A DNA stretch of 57,999 bases, filler included, from Basidiobolus ranarum (taxonomy: Eukaryota), in the NCBI GenBank assembly GCA_040143965.1. It is 5 parts of 5 records of this genome, joined end to end, with 100 filler letters (N's around TTAATTAATTAA, not from the genome) between each part and the next. Parts side by side here need not be neighbours in the genome. Positions count along the whole stretch, not along the records: positions 11,657 to 23,201 come from JASJQH010000605.1; 4 more parts are not named here. The stretch is one strand, 5' to 3'. The first letter of the stretch is position 1. The number at the start of each line of letters is the position of its first letter. Positions 5,055-46,506 of this stretch are shown here, one piece after another. A program made the translations under genes and the position numbers. Below the pieces are notes generated by a model, which searched no databases, was not told the DNA's origin, and saw only the letters and a program-made list of their open reading frames with translations.

Positions 5055-6294
5055 ATGACCGTCGTCACATCAACTGCTTCCCAGTCACATGTTACTTCTC
5101 CTTCAATAGTTAACTATCGATCCTCTGAAGATACGAACAGTTTGTCAGACTTTCAAAATGTAACAGTCTTTGCACAAATCTTCCAACTTCAAAAATGGAA
5201 AGTGCCTAATCAATCATTGTGCAGCGGCGCCAGACGTAATCACCCTTTGTCTCTTTTCTGTGAAGCCGGTATGTATGGATGTTTTTATGTGCGATTACTG
5301 TGATAAAATTCATGTCCTAATCGGATTTTGTTGATATTTAGAACAACAACTTGCTGTCTCCGTCAAACTCCTTGAAAATGTTCGGGAGGTGAATTCGGAT
5401 GAATTTAGGAGGTTTATTGATAGAGTGCATCAACATCAAACTGAGCTGTTAAATACAATCTATCTCGTATACTCTGAGATGGATTCAGTGTTGAAATGTT
5501 CAAGAGGATATCGAAGATATTTATCTCAAGAAGATAGGGAGGAACTAGATCATGGATTTTCCGAAACTATCCTTTTTGCTGCTCAGGCACTTTCTAAAGG
5601 ATTTCAAATTCGAGGTATTGAATACTGTTCTGAAGAACTCCGTGGGCCAGCACAGAAACTATGTGCAACATTCGAGGCGTTACGTTATGTATTTCAATAC
5701 AAAGCTACTGAATATCCAGATAGTATTTCCTTGGTCGGTTTGTTCCCAGTAGTGATGGATTTTGACCAAGCTTGGGTTGATTTCGAAAAAGCGATTTGCT
5801 ATATATATTTCAATATCAACGGACGTCGCGCACGTGAACGAGAAAACGAGGAGATCAATGAACGGCGTTTGTGGGTCGGTTTAATGTGGGATACTTTGGA
5901 AGAAATTGTCGAGAAACAGATTGTTAGCAGCGATGCTATTAAAGAATATGATCCATCCATATTTTTTGCCCTCCCAAGGATGACCCTCCTGAGTCTTTTG
6001 AAAGTTCCTTTTGACTCGATCAAAAATTTAAAAGCCTTATCTTCGTACACTGACGAGATGAAACAAATTTGTGAAGAACTAGCAAACCTTACACCCACAG
6101 AACTGTTAACCTTGCAAAAGTGGCTTTGTGGTGAAGAAGTGAACCCAGCCATAGTAAATATACACCAAACTTTCACTAAACTCTGTGCAATAGTAGACCC
6201 ACTTCAATCAGGACCTTCAGCCAAATTCTTCCTAAGTGTCATGTCTAAAGTATTTCAGCGTCATATAGATAGAACCTCCGAAGAAAGTCATTAG
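5055..6294 (+). CDS. LST2/ZFYVE28 N-terminal-domain homologue lacking a FYVE finger
   Basis: An intron at 5269-5341 joins ORFs 5055 and 5389 in frame. Segments ETILFAAQALSKGFQIRGIE..SEELRGPAQKL, FDQAWVDFE and EYDPSIFFALPR resemble LST2 conserved blocks. There is no Cys-rich FYVE domain before the stop. Confidence 0.65.
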
Positions 6295-6639: not shown

Positions 6640-8631
6640 CTAAGCTTGGATTGAATGAGAAGCAGCTAATTTCTCTTGGATAACAAATCTCAACATTCCT
6701 TCAGCGCGGACTCTTAACCAGGAATCCTTAGGCATATCTTTGGCAACCTTAGCAACCTCACGCGCCTGAGCAAAACATCCGTCGATGTTGAGTGTTTGCC
6801 AATGCCATCTGGCAAGTGACCAACCAAGGGGAACAGTTTGTCTAGCATAGGCAGACTCGGCACCCTTGGGAGAATCAGGGCGATGTTCAAGATGATGAAG
6901 TACAACTTGGAATAGTTGAAGAAGTGATGTGGTGATTAACTTGAGGCGATTGGGGACAGAGTCAGCAGGCCATTGGATGGCATCAGTGGTCTCTGAGCTC
7001 TCTTCAGTGCTTACTTCCTTGGTTTCCTCAGATTTTTCTGATTCTTCCTTGACTTCTTCTTCCTTCTTTTCTTCTACAGGTTGAGGAGCGGGCAATTCGA
7101 ACTGTCCACAGTTACGGGTTAATTTATCATGAATACAGAAGTAACCAAGAAGAGCTTCGAAGACCATGTTAAGTTCGACAGTAGGGATCTTCTCGATATC
7201 TCCCTCAGCTTTCTCGAAAATCTTGTTGATGAAAGAACGGAACAAAGTAGTGGCATGTTCATGATCACCAATATTGTAGGAAACACGAGCAATCCAGAAA
7301 CCAAGAGGATCTTCATCATTTTGTAATTGCATTCCAAGTTTCTCACACAACCAATCAATAGGGGATGGCTGATCTTCGTTAATTTCAGGCACCTCCTTAA
7401 CTTCTCCATTCTCCTGGGGGTTAGTACTGAAACCCCATGGGAGTTTACCGTCAGGAGACCACCAATAACGTCCATATTCGTAGACATATTCAGATGCCTC
7501 ATCCTTAGTTCCGAGTTCCAAAGTAAGTTTGTATTGCTCACGGCCAATGATCTCACCAATCAACAAACGTGGTACAAAGCGTTCAGAATCGCGGGCCAAA
7601 GCTTTCTTCAGTAGCTCATCAGTAGCCTTGGATTCAGGGCCGTTGAGATGGAAGGAAATCAAAATTCTTGTATAGATGAATGCAAGGAATAGATCATCAC
7701 TTTCTTGCTCATCCTTGGGGCCGAATTTGCTATCCAAAAGATCTTGAGCTCCGTTGAAGTCTTGAGTATCGAGGAGTAACTTCAATTTCAAGAAACGAGC
7801 ACCGAATTTATCTTCAGTATCACAGGCAAGCATTTCATCCAATACTTCGTTAGCCTCCTTTTCATACTCGCCACGCTTTTCACTATCACGAGGTTGGTGT
7901 TGACGAATCTTGAGCAGACACTTGGCCTTAGCGTACAAGGCACGGAGATAAGGACGAGAGAAGATCCATGTACCGAAACGACCCATGTTAGTATCCCAAT
8001 GAGATACGAAGTCTTCACCCAAAGTGTCATCTACGCTGGTTTTCAATCCTTTGAGAACTTCCTTGCCCTTGGTAACCGCATCATTAAGGAGTGCTAATTG
8101 TTCTTCTAACTCTTGGTCGGATTTGCAGCTGGCTAGAGTTACACGTGCATCAATGCTGAGATCGGAAATGGCAAGGGCTTTGTTGGCTCCGGCAATACGT
8201 TCAGATGGGGTACCCTTATGGAAAGTCTCGTACATGACCTCTTGAGCCTCGAAATATTCGGATCCAGGGAAAATGGTAGTAACATCCTTGTCATTTTCCT
8301 TGTGTGCGTTGTAGTTAGCTTGCTCCATGGCAAAGATATCGCTGGCAGAGTTACCGGAACCATAGTCCATAGCGAATACGTCTACCCAAAATGGAGCATC
8401 GAGAGAAGTGTTGTGAACGGAGATAGAGCAATTACCAACGTATTCAACGTAAGCCTGTTTGATTTGTTTGAGGTTACAGAACATTCTCAATTTCACTGGA
8501 CTACGTTGAGCAATGGCATTATAGAGACGCATGAGATCTTCATTGGATAGGTCAGTGTTGGTGTTTTTCGCTTCATTTTTTTTGTTCTTGGAGCCAGATT
8601 TCTTGTTTCTGTTGTTACGCTTGTTGGCCAT
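6640..8631 (-). CDS. Intronless ST7-like/TPR-repeat protein (~663 aa)
   Basis: Long ORF with the first ATG at 8631. Motifs AQEVMYETF...ERIAGANKALAISDLSIDARVTLA, SRPYLRALY, EMLACDTEDKFGARFL and IYTRILISF resemble ST7 and bacterial ST7-like TPR proteins. Confidence 0.7.
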   Translation of the reverse strand: MANKRNNRNKKSGSKNKKNEAKNTNTDLSNEDLMRLYNAIAQRSPVKLRMFCNLKQIKQAYVEYVGNCSISVHNTSLDAPFWVDVFAMDYGSGNSASDIFAMEQANYNAHKENDKDVTTIFPGSEYFEAQEVMYETFHKGTPSERIAGANKALAISDLSIDARVTLASCKSDQELEEQLALLNDAVTKGKEVLKGLKTSVDDTLGEDFVSHWDTNMGRFGTWIFSRPYLRALYAKAKCLLKIRQHQPRDSEKRGEYEKEANEVLDEMLACDTEDKFGARFLKLKLLLDTQDFNGAQDLLDSKFGPKDEQESDDLFLAFIYTRILISFHLNGPESKATDELLKKALARDSERFVPRLLIGEIIGREQYKLTLELGTKDEASEYVYEYGRYWWSPDGKLPWGFSTNPQENGEVKEVPEINEDQPSPIDWLCEKLGMQLQNDEDPLGFWIARVSYNIGDHEHATTLFRSFINKIFEKAEGDIEKIPTVELNMVFEALLGYFCIHDKLTRNCGQFELPAPQPVEEKKEEEVKEESEKSEETKEVSTEESSETTDAIQWPADSVPNRLKLITTSLLQLFQVVLHHLEHRPDSPKGAESAYARQTVPLGWSLARWHWQTLNIDGCFAQAREVAKVAKDMPKDSWLRVRAEGMLRFVIQEKLAASHSIQA

Positions 8632-9543
8632 ATTTAGTACACTACGGATTATTAACAAAATATCAAGTAAAATTATGAGTTAACATTGTTTCGATAAAGA
8701 TGGCACAACACTGTCCTTGCAGAAAGCAACGGTCTATCATACACAAATAGTATATACACCGTTATGCAAGCAAAATACGAAAACTAACTCACCAAAATTA
8801 AGGGAGAGATAAGGAACGGAAGAGGTTACGGAGAGAAGTGAATTATGGGCCTGTAGAAGCTTAGATTGAAATATAAATACAAAGCATTAGTCAAAAATTT
8901 CGAGAGCAACACGATAAAGAGTTACTATTGGTTGATATCATAACTCCCACCATCCAAAATCTACACCTCGGACTCATTAATGAAGTAAGCAAATTACGAT
9001 CAATGAGAGTGCGCCACTTGTTAAGAGCACTCACCTAACTCGTCAAAGAACCAACTAAATTGGGAGACCCAATCATTGAGAAGATGGAACGCAACACATA
9101 GATTGATTTCCGAACGAATGCTTTGGACACAATGTCGACAAGTTTAACAGGGTAAATTGATGCAAATTAGGGTAAATCACTGCATTCCATATTCTTAGCT
9201 TAGGGCTAGCCACAAATTGGCCATACAAATCCCGATTTTAGTATCATTTCCTGCCCACCTGCTCTCTATTATCTGCCTATCAAATCTACGCTTGGAAAGT
9301 GTTGTTTACCCAACAATGATCGAGTTTCATCACTGACCATGTGATCAGGAAAGATTCCAATTGGATTCAGAATACATACAAGTAACCCACGTACATACTT
9401 AGCAACCCTAACCCCATATCACTTGATGATAATTATCGTGCTTTGTGCACAATGTGTACTATGCTTGGTGTTCAAAAATCCTTTAATAGATTAAATATGA
9501 TAGAATCAGAGTATCGCCTATAGGCGTTACAAACCAAGATTAA

Positions 9544-11556: not shown

Positions 11557-11656
11557 NNNNNNNNNNNNNNNNNNNNNNNNNNNNNNNNNNNNNNNNNNNN
11601 TTAATTAATTAANNNNNNNNNNNNNNNNNNNNNNNNNNNNNNNNNNNNNNNNNNNN
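11557..11656. other. Artificial contig spacer (44 N + TTAATTAATTAA + 44 N)
   Basis: The same 100-nt spacer occurs four times and the linker has stops in all six frames. Confidence 0.98.
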
Positions 11657-12536
11657 GTATTTCCCTACTCGGCTCATTATTTACGTATTATATTTCATCA
11701 AGTATGTCATTTTGTTTAATAAAAGTTACTTTTTGTGATTATTAACATCTTTGGTTTACGTTAGGCTATTATATTTCATGCACTGGACGTTTTTTATGGC
11801 CCATTGGAGTGACCTCTCTTGGTTATTTACAAACAACTCGAGGAAGTTTTCAAGAGTCTAAAGGCTTTTATCATTTTGTGTTAAATTGGGAATATTTAAG
11901 TTGATACATGGCATGTGTTTTTAACCGTAGAAAGAGCATTAGAGATTTAAGCTATTTCCAACTTGGCAGCAAGAATCTTACATACACTTATTATCTCTGG
12001 GATGATTTCAACATTCTTGCGTCGCATTCTCAAATCATAGGCCAAAGATGTTGCTTCAGTCTATGATACATGACACACTATTTAATAGAAATTTATAAGC
12101 ATTGAACAATAGCTGAGTGCTAAATAGATGTACAAGGGAGAGTTTATGATTAATCCTCTCTGACAATATAGCTGTGAGTAATGAGTACATAATTCGATTA
12201 TCGTCCACAAGATGTCACTCTACGTTCACTATAATGTAATTTAGAGATGAGTGTCACTTCATGAGAAGCAATCAATTCCTTTAAATCAGTATTATTGAGA
12301 AGATATTACTATGCCTACATTAAAGGATGAAATCAATTGTGGAAGTGTTGAAATACGTCAATGATATTTGTGACAATCTGATATGAATCAAATATTGAGT
12401 TCAAATATCCGGAAACATTATTAGAAGCAGTTAAGTGTCAACAAGAATACGTAAAACCTTAACCTGAAATAGCTAATATGGCGAGCATCCAATAGTGGAG
12501 AATGCACGGTTACTTACTAACTTTTTGGAAATAGGG

Positions 12537-13250
12537 CTATGTCCTTGGTGTCGGGGGACTATCAGTGGTAGGTTCACCAGTGAATACTTCTTCTTTCTCT
12601 CCAGTCACCAATCCTTTAGAGATAGGCAATGAGTTTTTCTTGTGCAAATGCTTCTTGATCTTCTTAAAAGTTGAGAGACGTCTAATTAGCTTCCTAGCCT
12701 TGATTCGACGCAACTGGCCTTCTTCGGGAGTGACGATCGCTTCTTCACTCAGTAAAAAGTTTGTAATGAGTGCGCCTTTCCCTAAATTAAGGAGAGAACT
12801 AAAGTCAGTGGCTGACACATTAGCACGAGTCACACTTTTACCGGCTCCACAATGAGCGAATTGTAAATGGTGACCATCAGTATCCTCTACCAGAGCCGTA
12901 TCTTCAGTAGCTGTCGTAACCATATCTGTGATCTCCACTGAATCTATGCAACAACTGTATTCCTGGGAATAGCGTCCGGGTCAGTTGTGGATTCTTATCA
13001 GGGATAGTAGTATCCTTGGTGATAGCGTATGAATGGGCAGAACACTCATTGCCTTTTCTTCAGTATCTAACCTTTTGGAAATGGGCAATACCTCCTTCTT
13101 CTGTGAGCACCTCTTGACTTTAGAAATTGATGCAGCAACTTGCCTTCTTCAGAAGTGCAGAAAGTTGGGAATGAGTATACCTTCTAAATTAAGTGGTGGC
13201 CAGAGTGAACATTAAGAGTGTACCAGTAATGGAGTTGATAATTGTTCAGG
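12537..13250 (-). pseudogene. Degenerate two-unit member of the cationic prepropeptide family
   Basis: The downstream unit is open (GALITNFLLSEEAIVTPEEGQLRR-IKARKLIRRLSTFKKIKKHLHKKNSLPISKGL...EPTTDSPPTPRT). The upstream unit is frameshifted but recognisable (LNLEGILIPNFL, TSEEGKL, KKEVLPISKRL, ESTTDPDAIPRN). No intact signal peptide was found. Confidence 0.6.
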
Positions 13251-13419
13251 AATTCGTTTACTGTGGCTGATTAAGCCATATAATTATATTATTCTCTAAT
13301 GAATCGTCTAATCAATTATTTCAATCAGTGAGCCCTGATTTTATTTCTTTATACTTTTGTCAGATAATATGAGATTACTGGCATATGATGAATCATTTGC
13401 TTCTTCATTAGTGAACAAT

Positions 13420-14009
13420 TTAACTAGAGCGATCACCACGACGACCTCTATCTCCTCGGCCACCTCTACCAGTTTTTCCACGATCTCCGCGACCACCTCT
13501 ACCGTTCTTCCACGTTCCCCGCGACCACCTCGACCACTTCTACGAGCTAACCCAGTTTCATCCAGAGATATGTCGTTTTCATTGTCGGCATATTCATCCA
13601 GGATCATATCCGCATCTTCGTCAGCTAAGACTTCATCCAATACTGGCCGGTTGGTGACTACCTCACCCACATTCACAATAGTTGTCACCCTTTCTCTTCT
13701 GGGAAAGATGACTCTCCTGCGTGGCAATCTGCCTCGTCGGAACCTCCTGAATGGGAACCGGCTAAACATGACTCCCAACCTGACACGACGAAGTTGAGCC
13801 TCTTCAGGGGTGAGGTCAATTTCTCCCTCAAGAATCTCCTCTGGGTATACCATGCCCTCTATGGCACCTACTTCAGCCCCATCTCTTGATACGGGCTCAA
13901 TTGAGTCAGGGGATACTTCATTGGCTGGCACATTCTCGATCTCGGTATGACGACCAAGAACTGCAGTGGCTAGTAGCAAGGCACAAGCAACAGAAACATT
14001 AGGAATCAT
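13420..14009 (-). CDS. Secreted prepropeptide with an Arg/Pro-rich core and a Gly/Arg (RGG/RGD) repeat core; 1-nt frameshift at ~13504
   Basis: TATA at ~14071-14080 and signal peptide MIPNVSVACALLLATAVLG. Acidic spacers end in QLRR and LARR. A 33-bp repeat shows that one base is missing at 13503/13504, and restoring it gives 196 aa ending RRGDRSS*. As sequenced, the ORF runs on to 13341. Confidence 0.7.
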
Positions 14010-14539
14010 AATGGCGAATATCTGATTGTAGTCCGAGGAATACTGATAACTGTATATCTTCAATGACCTGACTTATATAGTCTTTTCTTGGCTAATAGAC
14101 TCTGCTACATACTCATATAGTAGAGTGGTCAATTAGGGACCTGTGGGAGTAAACCTGAGTTCTTTACTTTGTTTAACTTTCTTTGTGTGAAGCGCTTAAC
14201 ATTGGACTTATCCCTTGAGGTAGGCTATTCTTTACTTTGTTTTGTAATTTATACATGGCGAGATTGGATGTGCCAAAGTGACGTTGGGCGATTATCTATT
14301 TGACATGGCAATACAGTCATCCCGGAAGTTAGAAATTCGTGGTCAGAGGGCATGGATAACTTGATATAGCTGGCTCTCATATCATACTTTCACATTGTGC
14401 CTGACTTACATTTGCGTAATACTCGATCAGCCACCACGCTATAAGCCTAAATGACGTGTTAATTGGATATCACAGTAACATTAATTAAATATAGACCTCA
14501 TTGACAAAATAGAGTCTGACACAAGTACTAATAGTCAAA

Positions 14540-15010
14540 CTCACAAATAATCCATATTTGTATGGTTGCTAATATTAATGATAATTCCAGAAGATTTAGC
14601 CATACAAAAATACCATGGCTGATTTCTCTTATTGTAGTCTGAGAAATACATATAACTATATTCCTCTTATGGCTAGAAACACATAGTATTTTCTTGACTA
14701 ATTGACTGTGCTATACAATCATGTTGTAGAGTAGTAAGTTATGAGCCTGTGGGAATACATCTAAGTACTTGACCTTGTTTAACTTTGTGGAATTGCTTGT
14801 CATTAGACATATTCCTTCAGGTAGTCTATTCTTTATTTTCTACATAAGCGCTTAATCACTACCGAAGATATATCAAATTTAGTTGTGACAACGACATGAC
14901 AATGCAAACATTCTCTCATATAACATACCTTCACTAAACTTACATGTGATCATCCACCACACCACAAGTTTGAGTAACATTGCTCATTTAATTCGTGGCA
15001 TTTACATTGA
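14540..15010 (-). pseudogene. Truncated duplicate of the promoter, 5'UTR and signal-peptide start of the 14009 gene
   Basis: 14689-14840 aligns by eye with 14083-14240 (offset ~605 nt). The 5'UTR motif GACTACAAT is retained, and an ATG at 14616 is followed by an early TAA and a LSLILAT remnant. Confidence 0.6.
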
Positions 15011-15321
15011 TTGTTAATATGTATCGAGCATATGTATTCAGCCGTAGTTCAATATAGCAAATTGAATCTATGTAAGTTTGTAGTTCTAGAGATATTTTAA
15101 AAGAATCATTGACAATTCTCAAATTTACCAACAACTCACCCAATCCTAGTTATTATATCTTCCGTACTTACCACGATTCAATTTTTTACTTCCACAACCT
15201 CTGATTACCTCTCAGCTTCTATTAGTAAAGTATTCAAATATCCTCTTCACCATCAATAAGCATGATTTTCATTGATTTCACTCAGAAATACAGTGTTAAT
15301 AATCGAAATTTATTTCTAGAG

Positions 15322-15642
15322 TTATTTAAGTAAGAATTTACGCCTCTTTGAAACAAACCCAAGTAAATTCCCTAGTTTACTTAACAACTTCTTGGATGAA
15401 CGTGGTATTAGTTTCCCAAGATTTAAGCGTAGTAATTGGAACTCAGTAGGGGTGAGATCAACCAAGTCATTCAACACAATGTTAGGAATCAAAATTCCCC
15501 CATTAGTTTCTATCAATACCTGTTCACTGAAAGGAAAGGTAGATATCAAAGTGCGAATAGTCCCTCCAGTTGATCCGACTTGATGTGCTGTAATTATTGA
15601 AGCTAGTAAGGTAGTACAGATAAGGGAAATTTTGAAAAACAT
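15322..15642 (-). CDS. Secreted prepropeptide (106 aa) with a C-terminal cationic amphipathic segment
   Basis: TATA at ~15713-15720 and signal peptide MFFKISLICTTLLASIITA. The family motif GILIPNIVLNDLVDLTPTEFQLLR is followed by LNLGKLIPRSSKKLLSKLGNLLGFVSKRRKFLLK*. Confidence 0.65.
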   Translation of the reverse strand: MFFKISLICTTLLASIITAHQVGSTGGTIRTLISTFPFSEQVLIETNGGILIPNIVLNDLVDLTPTEFQLLRLNLGKLIPRSSKKLLSKLGNLLGFVSKRRKFLLK

Positions 15643-16248
15643 AGGTAAAAGTGACAATGATATAGTGGGTTATTACAATGAAGATATAGGAAATTCATAC
15701 TAAACTCACACCTTTTATAATTCTATTCAAGTATCATTTAAAAATCAGTCACACAGGGACTTTCTTTAAAGACAGTCACTTTTATCGTGGTTGGGTATGT
15801 TTTCATTACTTTAACTTCTAAATGAATGATAAGTAGATATTCAACCGGAATTGATATTGGATGCACTTTGATGAATATAAGGAATCTAATCACTTTTATA
15901 CACTATACCAACTCCACTTGCTTATGTTTAGATAGTATTTTTAATGGAAAAATAGAAATCAAGGTAAACAATAACTCTACTAAATCATAAAATTGTCTTG
16001 GAGAAATAATAAGAAGAATCTAAAAAAGTAAAGAAAGCACTGACAACATTTGCAAATCCAACACGCATCACAAGGTAAAAGAAGGTCATATTGAGATGAT
16101 TATAAATGGAGATAATGACAAAATTGGAATGAGGAGTTATCTGGCATTGATTTTGTTGCTCAAACGATGAAACGTAGATCACCTTGAGTAAAGTACCCAA
16201 AAAGCGACTTGATATTACTAACAGACTCAGAATGCTTGCTACTTGGCC

Positions 16249-18687
16249 TTACGAATCTATCAGATTAGATTTACCATAGAACAGCAGATAGGCCAAACGA
16301 TCCGAATGCTCTGCAACCACTTCAGACTCAGGAATGCGAGTGATATTTGTGTCATCCATGTGCAACCATTCATCATTCTGTCGAAGGACATCGCAGGTAT
16401 AATGTCCACCAGCAGCCAACTTGCCATGATGGTACACAACTAGATAGATAGAATGTTAACGGATGTACAAAGTCAAATCTTTATATTTTGAATACCCTAC
16501 CTCCGAGCAATTTATAAGAAATCGGCTTAGAAACACCTTTGGAGGGAGATACAATTTCTGTCACGTAGACAAAGTATGTTAATAACACTCGTATTCATAT
16601 ATGTTTACTTTAGCACTGTTACCTGGGGCAACTTTGAGGTCAATAGGATATTCGATATGCTTGTGAACTTTTTGGATGCCACCAACGCTGTCATACTCGA
16701 ATCGTTTCAGGTGGAGAATCAGCACGGGGGGAAGAGTCTCAATTAGTGTTTGTCTCGTGGCTTCGACCTGTAAGAAGTAATGGTTACGAAATATCTCGAA
16801 TGAAGGAGTATATGATTTCGTCAATACCTGAATACCCTGACTAGTAGTAAAACCATCAATAAGATCAAGTTTGGTCACATTTAACAAAGCGTCTTCAATA
16901 GTATGTACTTCATCAGGCTGAATAGTATTAATAATTAAGATGCATTAGAAGGGCTCAGAAAATGTCACACTACAAATTGATCATTTTATCTTACCGCGAT
17001 ATCAAGCTGGAGGGCTTGGAATGGTTCAAGTGTGACCGAGTCTTTAGAGCCTGGACATCTCAGAATTGATCGAACCTGGCCACCAAAGATCTTCTTGATA
17101 GGGGTTTCCATAACTTCGGTCTAAAATCATGTGATAGTTGTTTAACAAAATAAAATCAAAAATACTGGTAGGTATTGGGAACATACTGCTCGTGTTATAG
17201 AAGTTCTATTGCGTGGGCCAACTTCCATCCATTCACTTGCTCCTTCTGTAACATTGGTACTGTCGTGATTGAGTTGATCAGAATCGTCTTGCAATTCCTC
17301 GATTTTAGGAAGAACTGGCGAACAATAGGAACATTAGTAATCAAAAATAAAAAAATACAATTGCAGCGCCTACGTACTTGACATAAATTCCTCATGCAGA
17401 CCATCCAGAAGGAATCCCAAGAACTCTTCAGCATCCTCTTGTCTTCCCTAAAAGTACGAATCCCAACAGTTAGAATATTAATGTACAATTATGTTTGCTG
17501 GAGGAAGACCTACTCTCATGGAATTGAAGCGTTTGAGACCGCGAAGAGCATCGTAAACATACTCGGGAACAAATGCATCTTCGTACTCAATGGTTCCTAT
17601 AATCATGAAGTCAAAATTAGAAATAGTTGGTTGCTTTCAAATGGCTATGACTAATTTACCTTTAGTTTCTACATCAGGGCCTTCTTGAAATTCATTGACA
17701 AACATCACTCTACGCAACAATCGTTAGTTTCAATAGAAATATAGCAGTACTAAAAATGGATCCTTACAATGAATCGATCAAGGGGGTTTTGCTTTTGAAA
17801 CTGTGAGCTACGTTCTTGCTGATCTCTTTAACAAGAGCATAAAAAGGGGAGATGTGTGCGAGTGGTTGCAAAATCTAAGTTGGACGAAGATATAGTAAAT
17901 ATCACGGAATACTATATTTTAATATCGAGAGAACATACCGCGTTCATGAAGCACATGTTACCGTTGTTGACCAAGCCTCTAGGTCGAATTAGCTTTCCAT
18001 CAAATGAAACCTTGTAATTGTGAAGGACGTCTGCGAAATGGGTAAGTTTACTGTTCAAGTAGCTATCAATTCAATCTTTGAAATGTTGCTTACTATCGAT
18101 ACCGTGTAAAATAGTGTGGCCGTTGGTTTTCGCTGATTTCGTGGTATCCTTCATAGTGCTTGCTTTTTTGGTCGAATCTTGATCTGCGGAATTACTTGAC
18201 TGAGAATTAGCGGCCGCCGCTGCAGCTTTGGCTTTATTCTGATTTTTTACCAAATCAGCCCAACTTTTGGCTACAGGTGGTATGGTTTCAGCAACATGAT
18301 TAGTTGTAGTAGTGGTATCTTGCGATAAGGCTATACAAAGAATGCGGAAGTTTCATTTAGTAGACCTTTATAGATTATAATTGTGTGTAAAATCCTTACT
18401 CGATGGATTTTGGATTTTCCAAGGTAGCTAACACGTGAATAATTGAAGGTAAGTAAAACTCTTAAAGGAATCACTATGCGAATAGAAAAACTACCGAAAA
18501 AGTAGCATAGTAGTCAACAACTTCGTTGATTTCTTCACGACTCAAGTCGCCAAGCGTGTAGTAAGGGTGTGAGATCTACAGATTGTATATGATTGCGATG
18601 GGTGGGGTTGGATTATAAAACAATGTTAGACATAAACCTCAAGAAAAGTATGGTTATAGAAGCTGATGAGATAATTACAGTTTTCAT
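16249..18687 (-). CDS. UBP3: Ubiquitin-specific protease Ubp3/USP10 (multi-exon)
   Basis: Cys box RGLVNNGNMCFMN, QEDAEEFLGFLLDGLHEE, LPPVLILHLKRF and His box YHHGKLAAGGHYTCDV. The N-terminus has LPW and KSWADLVK motifs. The start comes from a 9-nt first coding exon (MKT). Confidence 0.9.
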
Positions 18688-19424
18688 TGGTTGAAATTTG
18701 CGAAAAATAATTAACAGAGAAGGCGATGATATTAAAAAAGTCTAGCAGTTGAGATGTGTTGAATAGAACGATGTAAAATGCGAGTGATTTATAAGTTAGT
18801 ATGTGGTATGCAACATGCTCCAGTAGAGGAAGATCGATAGTGTAGGTATAGGCGAAAGTGTAACAGTAAATCCAAGGAATTGATTTGAAGGAACTTTCTA
18901 TGCTATTTAGGTCGATATTCTTTTCCAGTCGAAAAAAGTAACGAACTGGGATAATGCTTCCAAAATAAAACTAACAAGTCCAAAGATTGAACGAATTAGC
19001 GAGATTCGGCGAAATTGCGTGTTAAAGAATTTGCTAGCACGGTAATGATGAGCGAATTGATAGGTGGAATTCTAGATCCGACTTTTTTCTTTTTTTCAGA
19101 GTTTTGAATATTAGCTTAGCGTACATGCTTCATCAATTATTTAGTCACTACTGTGTGAACAATCAATTATTTCGGTTATTGATTTCGATCAATTATCTTA
19201 GTTAACGTAGTTTAGCAGTGACTCTTTTCTAATAGCTCAATCAGTTCCAATATCATTTAATGTGGAGTATAATGGCGTCAGCAAACTTATCGATTTTAGA
19301 TATAGATAGGTTCCATGAGAGCACCACGTTGAACCAACTCTCTCATTCTTCCCTCTAGCTAACGTAAGTGACTATTTAAGATGTACGATTGCCGTTCTTG
19401 TTATTAATAATTTGTTTCTAGAAT

Positions 19425-19631
19425 ATGGGTTACAGTGTCAACGACGTACTTCTTCTTGTCATTGGATTTTTCCTTCCTCCACTCTCTGTATTTGTTAAAC
19501 GTGGTCTCCACGCCGACTTTTGGATTAACCTTGGTCTTACTTTGCTTGGAGCTGTTCCTGGCATCATCCATGGTTGGTATATTGTCCACAAGTATCGCGA
19601 CTTTGGTGGCGATTATGAAGCCTTGCCTTAG
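19425..19631 (+). CDS. PMP3: Pmp3/Sna family plasma-membrane proteolipid
   Basis: FLPPLSVFVKRG...FWINLGLTLLGAVPGIIHGWYIV matches the UPF0057 pattern. There is a 5'-UTR intron just upstream. Confidence 0.92.
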   Translation: MGYSVNDVLLLVIGFFLPPLSVFVKRGLHADFWINLGLTLLGAVPGIIHGWYIVHKYRDFGGDYEALP

Positions 19632-20076
19632 TTAATGACCCTCCTGTCAAATACCTTTATTGATTACACTAATATCAAGTTGCAGATACCTTTATCATTT
19701 TCTCAATAGCTTTTGATAATCAAATATTAAAACATAACCATACCACACTTAAGTTCATTTTGAAAGCTTTAGATATCAGCTTACCTAGTTTCTTAATTTA
19801 TTACGCACAATATTATATGTTTCACATAATTGTTGTAGCAAAGTGAATGAGAAGGGAGAGAGGGTTTTGATTTGTGTTTCACCTGGAATGCTTATTTCCT
19901 GTTACAGGGAATAAATTGACTTCTATGACAGGGAAAAAGATTGTATGGAAGAAAGGTCTACATTTACACAAAGATGGTCAGCAGGCGACTTGTGTGTACA
20001 TGAAAAAAGAAATGGAATTGCAGCAAAGGAAGGCTTGGTGACGATTTGTGTGGTTAAATGGGTAAAATGCGAGGGC

Positions 20077-22057
20077 TTATTGTTGATTGCATTGGACGCC
20101 GGGACCCCCTCTGCCTTGCTCCTCATCATCTTCGTCATAGGCATTTCCCCCAGAGGAAGCAATAGAGCCAAACTATACAAATGAGTTGAGTGTTTTGCTA
20201 AAGGATCAAATAGGACATTGAGGTTATTACCTGTGAGATTTCTGACTCATGCAAGTGTATCTCATCAACGATTTCTGGATGAGCTGGCTCAGCAGGACGA
20301 GGTGGGAGAAGACTTTCCAAAGTCTAGAGCAGGACTTAGTATACAAACGTTAACTTGCTTTCAAGTAATCATTCACAAACCTTGTATTCAGGATTTGACA
20401 ACCATCCATTAGGAGGAAATTCAACATCGAATTGAACATAAAGGTTACCCTTATCGAAAGGTCTCTTGTATTGAGGCATACCTTCGCCCATAATGCACTT
20501 AATGTCACCTACACACAGCAATTAGTATTGAGAGAGAAAAGGAAACCATACATGATACACTTACCAGGTTTGATAACTTGACCTGCAGGCTGCTTCACAA
20601 CCAAGCCTCTACCGTCCAAGTGAGTTACAATACATTTGGAAAATCCACAAATAGCCTCAGTTAATGTAATTTTAACTTTGGTTAATAAATCAGCTCCTTT
20701 TCTTTCAAATGTATCGTTCTCTTGTTGTTTCAAGACCAAAACAACATCACCAGTCTCAATTCCAGGCTGTCAAAAGCACTCAGGTGAGAAATAAATTCCA
20801 TGAGCTAAATTCTGTTGTACCTTACCTCCTGATCACCTTCTTCCTTCATAACGATTTTTTGGCCATCTTTCATACCCTTTTCAATGAATACTTCGAGGAT
20901 CTTGCGTTCGTTGGTGACTTTCTTGCCCTTGCACTTCTTGCATCTATCCTTCTCTTTAATAATTTCACCCTTTCCATCGCCTAATCAATGTGTAAAATAA
21001 ATGGTTATATTCCGTAGAGATGAAACATAAAGAAATCAATAGGACTTTACATGAAGTACAGGCGACTTGCATTTGCTGCATCATACCAGGAGCAATCTGG
21101 CGCATGGTCATCTTAACACCATGACCATCACAGCTGGTACATTTTTTGACTGCACCAGATTTTCCACCCTTGCTGTAATCAAGAGAATAATATTTAGTCG
21201 ATGCTAAAGTATTTTCGTTTTCTATACAGTACTAACCCATGGCAATGTGAGCAGATGACGTTCTTTTGGAGAGCCATTTTGGTAGCTTTACCATTATAAA
21301 GATCTTCCAGAGTGACTTTAAGAGGGTGGACAATGTCTTCTCCGCGTTGCTTCCAAGAGCGAGGAGGACCTCCGCCTAAAAACTATGTTAATCAATTTGA
21401 AATAAGAAATAGGCATATGCGGAAGAGCGTACCTCCGAATGATGCGCCACCAAAGCCACCTCCAAAGAATTGAGCGAAAATATCTTCAGGATTCATTCCA
21501 TAATCACCACCTCCATTCATGCCTTCTTCACCAAAGCGATCATAATTCTCTCTATAAATATTTTGTTAATAATGATTACACTATGAGATAGATACATGAT
21601 TTCGGGCCAACCTCTTTTCAGAATCACTGAGTATCTCGTATGCATGACTAATTTCTTTGAACTATATAGTTATAAATTTCATATAAGTACTTGTATTAAA
21701 AATTCAATATTGAAGAACAAATGTACCTTTTCGCCTTCGTCAGGATTCTTGTCAGGGTGAAATTTCATGGCCTTTAAAGAGCAAAGAGTACATTAGATTA
21801 TATAGTGCACGATAATGTATTTCCATGTTAAAGATGTATATGAGAGCGAAATGGACTTCTACAGGACATGGTAGCCTTGGGCAATAAGTTTTATCTTCTA
21901 AAAAATACTAACCAGTTTGCGATAAGCCTGACGAAATGTAAAATAAAGTAAGTATTGATTTTAACCTCAAGAAGTTATTGAAGTCCAACAATACCTTTTT
22001 GATCTCAGAATCAGTGGCATCTTTTTCGACGCCTAAGATCTCGTAGTAGTTGGACAT
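20077..22057 (-). CDS. YDJ1: Type I Hsp40/DnaJ chaperone (Ydj1/Xdj1-like), multi-exon
   Basis: J domain [29 protein letters not shown], with a 15-nt exon at 21913-21927. It also has a G/F region, CxxCxGxG zinc motifs and a C-terminal CaaX PGVQCNQQ*. Confidence 0.9.
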
Positions 22058-22707
22058 AGTTTAAATGGAGATAACTATGAGTAAATGCGAAGGTATGTAT
22101 AGACCAGTAATAACCGCGCCTATTTTGTGAAGGTAACTTAATGGTAAAGAATACCCGAGCTAAAAATGAAGTACATAAGGACTCGCATCGTTTAATCAGT
22201 AGCCCTAGATCTTAAATTGTTTGTCCCTTGTAGAGTAACTCAAAATTTTCCCAATTTCGTATTTTATTAGATATTTCATTGATTTTTAAATCAACCATCA
22301 ACCACTTGATGACATCGGTTGAATAACCGAAAACGAATCACTCTGGAGTTTTTCTGATTCTTGGATTATATACGGTTGTGAAGTCTCTAAAAGGCAAATT
22401 GATTATTCGGTGATTTTGTCATTTCACTAGATGCATGCGCCATACAGAAGACCTGGACTTGGAGAGTGGAACCTTAATATGAACCAATATACTTCTTCCT
22501 TATCAAATGGATGGGATATTATCATGATTAAGACACAGAAACCCAAAAGACGAGTTTATTTATACGAGGAAGATGATTGTTAGTTAAGTTGCCAAGTCCA
22601 CGTGTGCCACCAACGATAGTCTCGACGTATGAGCACTTCTCATGGTTCTGTCAGTGATGCCGTAGTTGTTCCAACAATTGAGAGTGGATAGAGCACCTCA
22701 TCTAGAA

Positions 22708-23201
22708 GAATAAGCCTGACTATACCTATTTCACACGAAGAAAGTTAATCAAAGTAAAAGGCCTAAATGCATTCCCACAGATTGGCAATATACTATTCTA
22801 CTAACATGAGTAAGTAGCAGAGCCTATCAGCCAAGAAAAGATTATATAGGTCAGGTCATTGAAGATATACAGTTATCAGTATTCCTCGGACTACAATCAG
22901 ATATTCTCCATTACGATTCCTAACGTTTCTGTTGCTTGTGCCTTGCTACTAGCCACTGCAGTTCTCGGTCATCATACCGAGATCGAGAATGTGTCAGCCA
23001 GCGAAATATCCCCTGACTCAATTGAGCCCGTATCAAAAGATGGGGCTGAAGTAGGTGCCATAGAGGGCATGGTATACCCAGAGGAGATTCTTGAGGGAGA
23101 AATTGATCTCACCCTTGAGAGGCTCAACTTTGTCGTGTCAGATTGGGAACCATGTTCAGCCGGTTCCCGTTCAGGAGGTTCCGACGAGGCAGATTGCCAC
23201 G
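22708..23201 (+). pseudogene. Inverted, disabled copy of the 14009 prepropeptide gene with its upstream region
   Basis: Close match to the reverse complement of ~13720-14230. The start ATG is changed to ACG (22913-22915), there is a 1-nt deletion at ~23118 and QLRR becomes QLCR. The copy is truncated by the gap. Confidence 0.85.
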
Positions 23202-23301
23202 NNNNNNNNNNNNNNNNNNNNNNNNNNNNNNNNNNNNNNNNNNNNTTAATTAATTAANNNNNNNNNNNNNNNNNNNNNNNNNNNNNNNNNNNNNNNNNNN
23301 N
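23202..23301. other. Artificial contig spacer
   Basis: N44-TTAATTAATTAA-N44. Confidence 0.98.
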
Positions 23302-30228: not shown

Positions 30229-31288
30229 CTAATCTCTAGGAGACCGGGATGGGCTTCGAGATACAGGGCGTGCGCTGGGTGAAGCTACTGGCTCTTCAGG
30301 TCTAGGTGAGCGAGAGCTCTCTTCATCACGTCTGGGTGATCTGGAGCGCTCCTCTTCACGTCTAGGGGATCTGGAGCGAGCTTCCTCACGTCTAGGGGAT
30401 CGGGAACGTCCTTCCTCACGTCTAGGTGATCTGGAACGTGCTTCATCACGTCTGGGAGAACGAGAACGCTCTTCATCGCGTCTGGGTGAGCGAGAGCGTG
30501 AGTATTCACGTCTTGAACGAGTGCGTTCTTCCTTGGGATCAGGGGAGTTGGAGCGGGGACGTGATCCACTACGCTTGGGGGAGCGAGAGCCATCATGTCT
30601 AGATGATCTTCTGCTGCTACGACGAGGAGATCTAGAACGAGAGCGTCTGCGATCTCTTCTAGGAGATCTTGATCTTGAGCGGCTACCTCTTCTACATAAC
30701 CATTAGATTAATTATCTTTACTATTATGCACGTCTTTATACATTCAATTACCTGGGGCTTCTGGAACCTTTTCTAGAGTTGCGGCAGTCACGAGCCCAAT
30801 GACCTGAATAAAAAATATCCAATGAATATGTGTATGCGAGCATGGTGGATTCTGATTTCTTACCTTCACGTCCACAACGGAAACATTCATTTTCGGTAGA
30901 GCGGCGAACAGCGCCTTTGGCGAATTCGACTACAATACGAGCACCGTTGAAACGCATTCCATCGCAACCACGGAGAGCATCTTCGGCATCACGTCTATCA
31001 TTATACTCTACGAAACCGAAGCCTATAGAGGAGACGGTTAGTGCCGTTTGAGAGTATTCAGAGTTAATTAAGCGAATACTTTACAATGTGTAGTTCCTTT
31101 CTTTTATGTACCAATCAAAAGAAGTAAAAGCGTTGTTTAGCGAAAATGAGCTGAAGTCGGGGAAATAAACTGTATAGCTTTACCTTCACATCGCATCTAA
31201 CGATCTTTCCATACTTGTAAAAAATATCCTCAAGCTCAGAAGCACGAGTTTCACTGGGTAGACGACCGACAAATAATTGAGTGCTCAT
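30229..31288 (-). CDS. SR splicing factor with RRM, CCHC zinc knuckle and RS domain (SRSF7/9G8- or RSZ-like)
   Basis: LFVGRL..ELEDIFYKYGKIVRCDVK, FGFVEYNDRRDAEDA and CFRCGREGHWARDC, then a long RS tail. The frame requires a 16-nt exon at 31085-31100. Confidence 0.92.
30296..30500 (-). repeat. 30-bp coding tandem repeat (RSRSPRR[D/E]Ex), about 6 units
   Basis: TCACGTCT(A/G)GG recurs with 30-nt periodicity in the RS domain. Confidence 0.9.
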
Positions 31289-34809: not shown

Positions 34810-34909
34810 NNNNNNNNNNNNNNNNNNNNNNNNNNNNNNNNNNNNNNNNNNNNTTAATTAATTAANNNNNNNNNNNNNNNNNNNNNNNNNNNNNNNNNNN
34901 NNNNNNNNN
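34810..34909. other. Artificial contig spacer
   Basis: N44-TTAATTAATTAA-N44. Confidence 0.98.
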
Positions 34910-46406: not shown

Positions 46407-46506
46407 NNNNNNNNNNNNNNNNNNNNNNNNNNNNNNNNNNNNNNNNNNNNTTAATTAATTAANNNNNNNNNNNNNNNNNNNNNNNNNNNNNNNNNNNNNN
46501 NNNNNN
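46407..46506. other. Artificial contig spacer
   Basis: N44-TTAATTAATTAA-N44. Confidence 0.98.

Follow-up and report, generated by a model that had tools for sequence, protein, structure and literature searches.

Signal-peptide-bearing charge-block proteins of Basidiobolus with a recurring Arg-Arg motif, read from a decaying gene cluster in Basidiobolus ranarum

Fungi of the genus Basidiobolus are found in amphibian and reptile guts and occasionally cause human infection. A stretch of 57,999 nucleotides (nt) of Basidiobolus ranarum DNA (assembly GCA_040143965.1; the whole stretch is called the window below) carries a cluster of small minus-strand open reading frames (ORFs) whose products switch from acidic to strongly basic segments at an arginine-arginine (RR) motif. 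This raises the question of whether the motif is a site at which a convertase cuts these proteins, and if so, what is released. A sequence-only reading had described three of the ORFs as a tandem family of secreted prepropeptides, in which a conserved pro-motif precedes hypervariable cationic cores freed by kexin. Judged from their sequences, they belong to a family of small, signal-peptide-bearing, charge-block proteins of Basidiobolus that are predicted to be disordered. That their RR motif is a Kex2-type processing signal releasing cationic peptides is plausible, with a probability that we put at about 0.4.

The three ORFs, here called gene 14009, gene 15642 and ORF 12938 (Table 1), lie where the sequence-only reading had placed them, and the ungapped 24-residue block that they were said to share reads as quoted in each. 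The three basic segments listed with it match the translations letter for letter; in gene 14009, lysine and arginine (K+R) account for 12 of the 30 residues directly past the motif. The ORFs are related above chance, as pairwise BLASTP gives E-values of 5e-7 (27% over 84 amino acids (aa)), 5e-4 (41% over 27 aa) and 5e-6 (37% over 63 aa), and as a profile of all three detects a fourth copy in the window. Signal peptides and TATA boxes had been assigned to two of the genes, and both assignments hold. Called by inspection and hydrophobicity, the N-termini of genes 14009 and 15642 (MIPNVSVACALLLATAVLG and MFFKISLICTTLLASIITA) are signal-peptide-like: short, hydrophobic (mean Kyte-Doolittle values of 2.69 and 2.32 over 10 residues, against 0.89 for ORF 12938) and ending in small residues (VLG/RH and ITA/HQ). 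ORF 12938 has no signal peptide. TATA-like boxes are present 63-77 nt upstream of the ATGs of genes 14009 and 15642. The conserved block of gene 15642, GILIPNIVLNDLVDLTPTEFQLLR, has LR in place of RR and is followed by the nonapeptide LNLGKLIPR and a Lys-rich block.

To find relatives outside the window, the N-terminal parts of the three ORFs were combined into a profile and run with HMMER, exhaustively, against 1.84 billion cluster representatives. Nine proteins were returned at E <= 1e-3, consisting of the window's own three, three further Basidiobolus proteins and three matches judged spurious. The further members are hypothetical proteins of Basidiobolus ranarum (P0124, which is KAK9674638, 204 aa, E 8e-19; and P0125, 232 aa, E 1e-8) and of Basidiobolus meristosporus CBS 931.73 (P0129, which is ORX90058, 213 aa, E 1e-3). 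ORF 12938 and P0124 share 57% identity. P0126-P0128 were rejected as relatives: these proteins of 617-878 aa match a short part of the profile with 6-7 internal repeats, and the family layout is absent. The search yielded a family of signal-peptide-bearing, tandemly duplicated proteins whose outside members are all from Basidiobolus.

The architecture of intact members emerges from an alignment of six sequences (the three window ORFs, P0124, P0125 and P0129). A signal peptide is followed by about 30 variable residues, an acidic stretch ending in (T)PEExQLRR, a nonapeptide and a Lys/Arg/His/Pro-rich block; the second half consists of an Asp/Glu/Thr-rich block, a second PEE(T/A)EL-RR motif and an Arg/Gly/aromatic repeat tail. 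The first motif has the consensus G-x-L-I-P-x-F-x-L-x-x-E-I-x-L-T-P-E-E-x-Q-L-R-R, of which P0129 lacks the part before EE. The nonapeptides (VRLGVMFSR, IRIRKLLRR, VNLGKIFAR, LKIGSMVKR, LNLGKLIPR and IKARKLIRR) follow the pattern hydrophobic-x-hydrophobic-G/R-x-hydrophobic-hydrophobic-x-R, with an invariant last Arg. Variants of the second motif are APEETELYRR, SPEETELRR and DPEEAELWGR, with LDETGLARR in gene 14009, and the tails of intact relatives are built from RYDYDRYRR, GRGRFGRG or, in P0129, RWGRG repeats. A C-terminal profile made from the three outside proteins alone matches gene 14009 at E 5.4e-10, so the second module is shared by this gene. Charge is nearly balanced in the intact members, with K+R against D+E counts of 37/34, 31/31 and 39/29. 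The start annotated for P0129 probably lies too far upstream: in the public model, 31 residues precede an internal Met that opens MIFKPSVLCSLLMATLAYG, a signal-peptide-like segment that corresponds to the N-terminus of the family.

This architecture differs from the one first proposed in three respects. Each protein was thought to switch to a different segment right after the block, but the first nine post-motif residues are conserved in the six-member alignment. The basic core was taken to be a C-terminal payload, but in intact relatives it is an internal block, followed by the acidic block, the second motif and the repeats. Finally, the core was called hypervariable, whereas in the closest pair (ORF 12938 and P0124) the basic block is identical at 15/27 positions versus 19/32 before the motif. 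Along this pair, identity amounts to 19/32 before the block, 16/24 within it, 6/9 in the nonapeptide, 9/18 in the rest of the basic block and 17/27 after it.

The supposition that the family is undescribed fared better, as Pfam, the PDB and a protein atlas gave no match to a known family or transposon. Pfam returned 0 families for the three window ORFs at E <= 1 and sub-threshold matches only for the relatives. A profile search of the PDB gave matches limited to Arg-Gly low-complexity stretches of ribosomal or RNA recognition motif (RRM) proteins, and neither the 106-aa protein (best feature score 0.77) nor P0124 had a usable counterpart in the atlas. A word-index search with the 222-aa protein found itself alone among 3047 candidates; with the six-sequence alignment as query, P0124 and the window's three were returned from candidates capped at 8000, and P0125 and P0129 were not recovered. 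The exhaustive profile search, which recovered both, is thus the more sensitive of the two. Among metagenome contigs at JGI, 47 pattern matches were obtained and 0 confirmed. Literature searches by accession and locus tag of family members found no paper, and searches of the Basidiobolus literature on the secretome, antimicrobial peptides and small secreted proteins, judged by titles and abstract openings, turned up no description of such a family; ORX90058 has 0 occurrences in three supplementary text files of PMC7329392. As far as these searches reach, the protein family is restricted to Basidiobolus and is new at the sequence level.

What could the motif be for? The strongest clue is that one RR-ending motif occurs twice, each time at an acidic-to-basic switch, in otherwise dissimilar proteins, as a short linear motif would. 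The twice-repeated acidic/EExxL-RR/basic arrangement would then be read in the secretory pathway, most likely by a Kex2-type convertase through dibasic cleavage. The charge of the basic blocks would be offset by that of the acidic ones up to the point at which cleavage frees cationic peptides outside the cell, and these might serve as antimicrobials, as signals or in binding. The near-balanced charge of the intact members is as expected if acidic blocks mask cationic products. RR follows the motif in five of the six aligned members at site 1 and in three of four at site 2. Full-length relatives carry the whole acidic/RR/basic layout twice per protein, a repetition that favours a processing signal. 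The originally proposed layout of an acidic piece, a dibasic site and a cationic segment is real in its order, while the dibasic pair is not universal, gene 15642 having QLLR. According to the consulted parts of PMC8528282, Kex2 nearly always has Arg at P1, prefers Lys or Arg at P2 with some tolerance, and prefers Leu or another aliphatic residue at P4. The same parts of that paper give KR, RR or LxxR as search motifs for Kex2 sites, name RR and KR as canonical, and describe pro-domains as typically N-terminal and unstructured.

Several observations weigh against cleavage at this motif. The QLLR of gene 15642 is neither dibasic nor LxxR, and site 2 of P0129 reads WGR. At site 1, P4 is Gln, not the preferred aliphatic residue. 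Internal RR sites in the basic block of gene 14009 would break it into pieces of 1-14 residues, as in-silico digestion at KR/RR gives VRLGVMFSRFPFRR, FRR, GRLPRR, R and VIFPRR. The helix check that had been suggested for the cores gave no clear sign of amphipathic helices: their maximum 18-residue hydrophobic moments (0.63, 0.61 and 0.50) are not above those of shuffled controls, fractions of 0.29, 0.07 and 0.23 of the shuffles (n=2000) reaching them, and the idea of a hypervariable amphipathic core is only weakly supported. The layout is intact in 0 of the window copies, so the locus may be non-functional, a matter to which we return below. Lastly, conservation straddles the proposed cut, comprising EExQLRR and nine further residues, and a low-confidence AlphaFold2 helix at residues 68-83 of gene 14009 (PEEAQLRRVRLGVMFS) spans it. 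Apart from this helix, the model, computed from a shallow six-sequence alignment, has helices only at the signal peptide and in the frameshifted tail, and with a mean predicted local distance difference test score (pLDDT) of 49 and a predicted template modelling score (pTM) of 0.20 it contains no folded domain. This is weak evidence that the family proteins may be disordered.

A conserved island past the cut and a helix across it fit a binding or structural motif equally well. Such a motif would be expected if the proteins act whole, as unprocessed extracellular polyampholytes that are disordered and sticky or wall-associated. Their charge blocks and Arg/aromatic tails would drive coacervation or bind charged wall polymers, for example when conidia adhere or a matrix is formed. 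Phase separation and adhesion are generally promoted by Arg-aromatic repeats, and the family has RYDYD, GRGRF and RWGRG repeat tails, strong segregation of charge blocks at near-neutral totals and predicted disorder; a dibasic pair that is not invariant, together with conservation across the supposed cut, points in the same direction. However, an RR-ending motif precedes both basic regions, as a processing signal would, and two window ORFs do without the repeat tail while retaining the signal peptide and the first module. Moreover, no Ser/Thr-rich glycosylated stalk, glycosylphosphatidylinositol (GPI) signal or wall-type Cys pattern is seen in the family sequences or their alignment. We regard whole-protein action as possible but doubtful.

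If the motif is a Kex2-type processing signal, known Kex2-dependent fungal precursors offer a comparison, and among these the KEX2-processed repeat proteins (KEPs) are closest in working. On that reading, both groups are secreted precursors with KR/RR sites that are lineage-specific, often duplicated and free of Pfam domains. A KEP is defined, in the consulted parts of Le Marquer 2019 (PMC6339444), by a signal peptide and at least three similar peptides between KR/RR sites, cleaved in silico, and the consulted parts of Umemura 2020 (PMC7329392) name B. meristosporus CBS 931.73, with 43 KEPs, as the richest strain surveyed. Genes 14009 and 15642 have the signal peptide and ORF 12938 does not; by inspection, the N-termini of the relatives match. 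None of the three window ORFs gives three similar peptides upon in-silico KR/RR digestion, while the tail of P0124 (residues 155-204) digests in a KEP-like manner into four octapeptides, YDYDRYRR, HDYDRYRR, HDYDRYRR and YGYDRYRR ([YH][DG]YDRYRR), which are Tyr/Asp/Arg hexapeptides followed by RR. Unlike in KEPs, RR does not punctuate the tails of P0125 and P0129, and the conserved element of the Basidiobolus family is the site with its flanks rather than the repeated peptide.

A second comparison is provided by the Kex2-processed pro-domain (K2PP) effectors of plant-pathogenic fungi, described in the consulted parts of PMC8528282. Like the Basidiobolus family, they have a signal peptide and then an unstructured N-terminal pro-piece that ends in RR within the first half of the chain; KR or LxxR also qualify as its end. 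In gene 14009, RR lies at residues 74-75 of 222, after a low-pLDDT region at 21-63, and the same arrangement is found in ORF 12938, P0124, P0125 and P0129; gene 15642, with QLLR, lacks it. K2PP effectors such as SnTox3 have a folded mature domain, whereas the region past the site is predicted to be disordered here, a comparison limited by the shallow alignment. There is no sequence relation between the two groups, and in the Basidiobolus family a second motif and module follow. The layout is a variation on known fungal pro-protein designs.

Precursors of membrane-active and antimicrobial peptides had served as models for the initial proposal. Ece1 of Candida albicans is a secreted polyprotein from which dibasic cuts free the membrane-active candidalysin, its KR-bounded peptides including a hydrophobic helix. 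The profile search of 1.84 billion representatives returned no such protein among its matches and Pfam gave none; compared with Ece1, the Basidiobolus basic blocks are far more charged, and their amphipathicity does not exceed that of shuffles. Frog dermaseptin-type and honeybee apidaecin precursors combine a conserved signal, an acidic pro-piece, a dibasic site and a cationic product, and the Arg/Pro/Phe composition of the gene 14009 block recalls Pro-Arg-rich peptides. The likeness to animal antimicrobial precursors is one of layout and composition only, not of homology; those precursors hold one peptide each, whereas the Basidiobolus proteins are two-module block polyampholytes. The RWGRG repeats of P0129 recall the synthetic antimicrobial hexapeptide RWRWRW, as presented in the consulted parts of PMC4999427. 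From composition, cleaved products might be antimicrobial, although we consider this unlikely. In a more far-reaching version, this would be the first example among zoopagomycete fungi of a host-defence-type peptide system, made of two-module prepropeptides cut after EExQLRR and PEExEL-RR. The products would be (i) the nonapeptide with the Lys/Arg-rich block and (ii) Arg/aromatic repeats of the RWGRG, GRGRF and YDYDRY types, the latter resembling synthetic (RW)n antimicrobials and used by gut-dwelling Basidiobolus against bacteria; rapid gene birth and death would reflect an arms race. Taken as a whole, this scenario is improbable, to a similar degree as the antimicrobial role itself.

How much of the cluster is still functional? 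It holds more copies, and more decayed ones, than first described. Searched with a profile of the three, the window's 1888 six-frame ORFs (>= 20 aa) yield the fourth copy in two pieces and two frames (E 6e-16 and 2e-10; next best E 0.66). In this inverted copy of gene 14009, the ATG has become ACG and 1 bp is missing in codon 69, within the TPEE motif. It differs from gene 14009 in 18 of 290 columns, which comprise 7 synonymous and 10 non-synonymous substitutions and 1 deletion (pN/pS 0.48, from 17 substitutions). The broken duplicate of ORF 12938 retains a motif remnant, TSEEGKLL, and in another frame a remnant KKEVLPISKRL. Behind the orphan promoter copy, no profile match to the coding sequence of the family was found downstream. 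In gene 14009 itself, one unit of the tail array is 32 nt long, 1 short. The ORF therefore keeps to the Arg-Gly frame for a single RGG unit and then continues through 57 unrelated residues, with GRGGRGDRGKTGRGGRGDRGRRGDRSS-stop encoded in the adjacent frame. This frameshift is either a 1-nt deletion in the gene or an error in the assembly. An antisense ORF of 152 aa at 13339-13797 (+), rich in Ser, Thr and Pro, is not taken to be a gene, as it is the minus-strand frame that the outside relatives match; it is regarded as a by-product of the low-complexity coding strand.

Table 1. Features of the gene cluster in the window, with positions counted along the whole stretch unless residues are given.
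Feature	Position	Strand	Remarks
ORF 12938	12537-12980 (stop to stop)	-	first ATG at 12923, giving 128 aa
Broken duplicate of the 3' half of ORF 12938	~12990-13195	-	indel-ridden; between ORF 12938 and gene 14009
Gene 14009	13341-14009	-	222-aa ORF
Gene 14009, signal peptide	residues 1-19	-	followed by acidic region
Gene 14009, block ending in TPEEAQLRR	13785-13856	-	
Gene 14009, Arg-rich block	13695-13784	-	followed by acidic block
Gene 14009, second motif LDETGLARR	13539-13565	-	followed by one RGG unit
32/33-nt repeat array	13421-13544	-	spacings 33 and 32; reading frames from three-frame translation
TATA-like box TATATAAG	14072-14079	-	~63 nt upstream of gene 14009 ATG; read from sequence
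Orphan copy of gene 14009 promoter and 5' leader	14627-14839	-	75-80% identity; TATA box lost
Gene 15642	15322-15642	-	106-aa ORF; identical protein is a predicted entry in NCBI/UniRef
TATA-like box TATAAAAG	15712-15719	-	~70 nt upstream of gene 15642 ATG; consensus match only
Inverted copy of gene 14009 and its promoter	22690-23201, coding from 22913	+	truncated by contig end; pseudogene

The other two ORFs are incomplete as well. Gene 15642 ends after the first basic block, without the acidic block and repeat tail, and its motif closes in LLR instead of LRR. Within 15146-15341 (-), a candidate intron of 131 nt can be read at 15341-15211, with a GTAAAT 5' site at 15341, a TACTAAT-like branch near 15222 and AG at 15211-15212; if used, it would replace the last residues with QVIRGCGSKKLNRGKYGRYNN-stop, an Arg/Gly/Tyr-rich tail like that of the relatives. 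The two introns read in the window are only about 62-67 nt long, against 131 nt for this candidate, and the best C-terminal profile match downstream of the gene 15642 stop, at 15149-15211, is not significant as a repeat-tail remnant (E 1.4). ORF 12938 closes with TDSPPTPRT and so never reaches the acidic block, the second motif or the repeats; at its signal-peptide position (12875-12923, -) it has MVTTATEDTALVEDTD, with five acidic residues, where P0124 has MLQLSFAGALLMATLAYG. Simple random decay would not lead one to expect so acidic a stretch. ORF 12938 is probably a pseudogene, and it and the broken, inverted and promoter copies are relics; the annotated models of 222 aa and 128 aa are probably those of damaged genes. 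The cluster is a tandem one evolving by birth and death, with fast turnover. As the family reaches to about 0.9 kb from one end of the contig and right up to the other, the assembly may have broken in further copies. Going by their open frames, genes 14009 and 15642 may be the only window genes still able to yield a secreted product, which would be shorter and lack an intact tail.

It could be that even these two are dead, and that the window is a gene graveyard whose intact paralogues act elsewhere, a possibility that overlaps the other readings. The lost ATG and frameshift of the inverted copy, the broken fragment and the geneless promoter copy are in line with this, as are the absence of signal peptide and tail in ORF 12938, the frameshift of gene 14009 within its own tail repeat, the truncation of gene 15642 with loss of its dibasic pair, and the pN/pS of 0.48 between gene 14009 and a dead copy, calculated from few substitutions. 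Yet ATG, signal peptide and TATA-like box are all retained in genes 14009 and 15642, whose first module is still open, and by our estimate an open frame of 222 codons in DNA of 38% G+C is unlikely without constraint. The gene 14009 frameshift could be an assembly error, and, with pN/pS below 1, at least one of the lineages seems to have been under some constraint. That all window copies are non-functional is, in our view, unlikely. Least probable is that the proteins are host- or prey-directed effectors, whose Arg/Lys-rich block would serve for cell penetration or nuclear localisation in cells of insects or of the animal gut: the basic blocks (40-48% Lys+Arg, mean Eisenberg -0.5) are closer to nucleic-acid-binding or nuclear-localisation stretches than to pore-forming helices, the family is genus-specific, duplicated and quick to turn over, as effector families often are, and the partly consulted literature associates Basidiobolus with guts, but AlphaFold2 gives no folded domain, no known translocation motif is present and the proposal stems entirely from composition.

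Should the RR motif be a real processing site, these proteins would constitute a new, genus-specific fungal pro-peptide family from a barely studied lineage. Natural Arg/aromatic repeat peptides would be among its products, so that new cationic peptides could be sought in it and put to the test, and the motif would be a conserved, extended recognition site for a fungal convertase. Should the proteins instead function uncleaved, they would exemplify secreted block polyampholytes in a compact, natural form. Under either reading, the locus records fast gene birth and death.

The window consists of five pieces of about 11.5 kb, joined in descending order of length by spacers (N44 + TTAATTAATTAA + N44) at 11557-11656, 23202-23301, 34810-34909 and 46407-46506, across which features cannot be read. 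The gene cluster lies on the second piece (11657-23201; 11,545 nt). Genes in the window include those for a thymidylate synthase, ATG22, an UNC-93/MFS protein, a ubiquitin hydrolase, a DnaJ protein and Pmp3, in eukaryotic DNA with short introns. Long open frames at 6640-8679 (-) and 5335-6294 (+), of 679 aa and 319 aa, have no Pfam matches at E <= 0.001. At 30229-30702 (-), an open frame of 157 aa with RSRSP/RRDEE repeats resembles an exon of an Arg/Ser-rich (SR-type) protein; the opposite strand is likewise open, as a mirror artefact. The third piece also carries a single-exon methylesterase with 79% identity to Basidiobolus meristosporus CBS 931.73, the next match being at most 50% identical.

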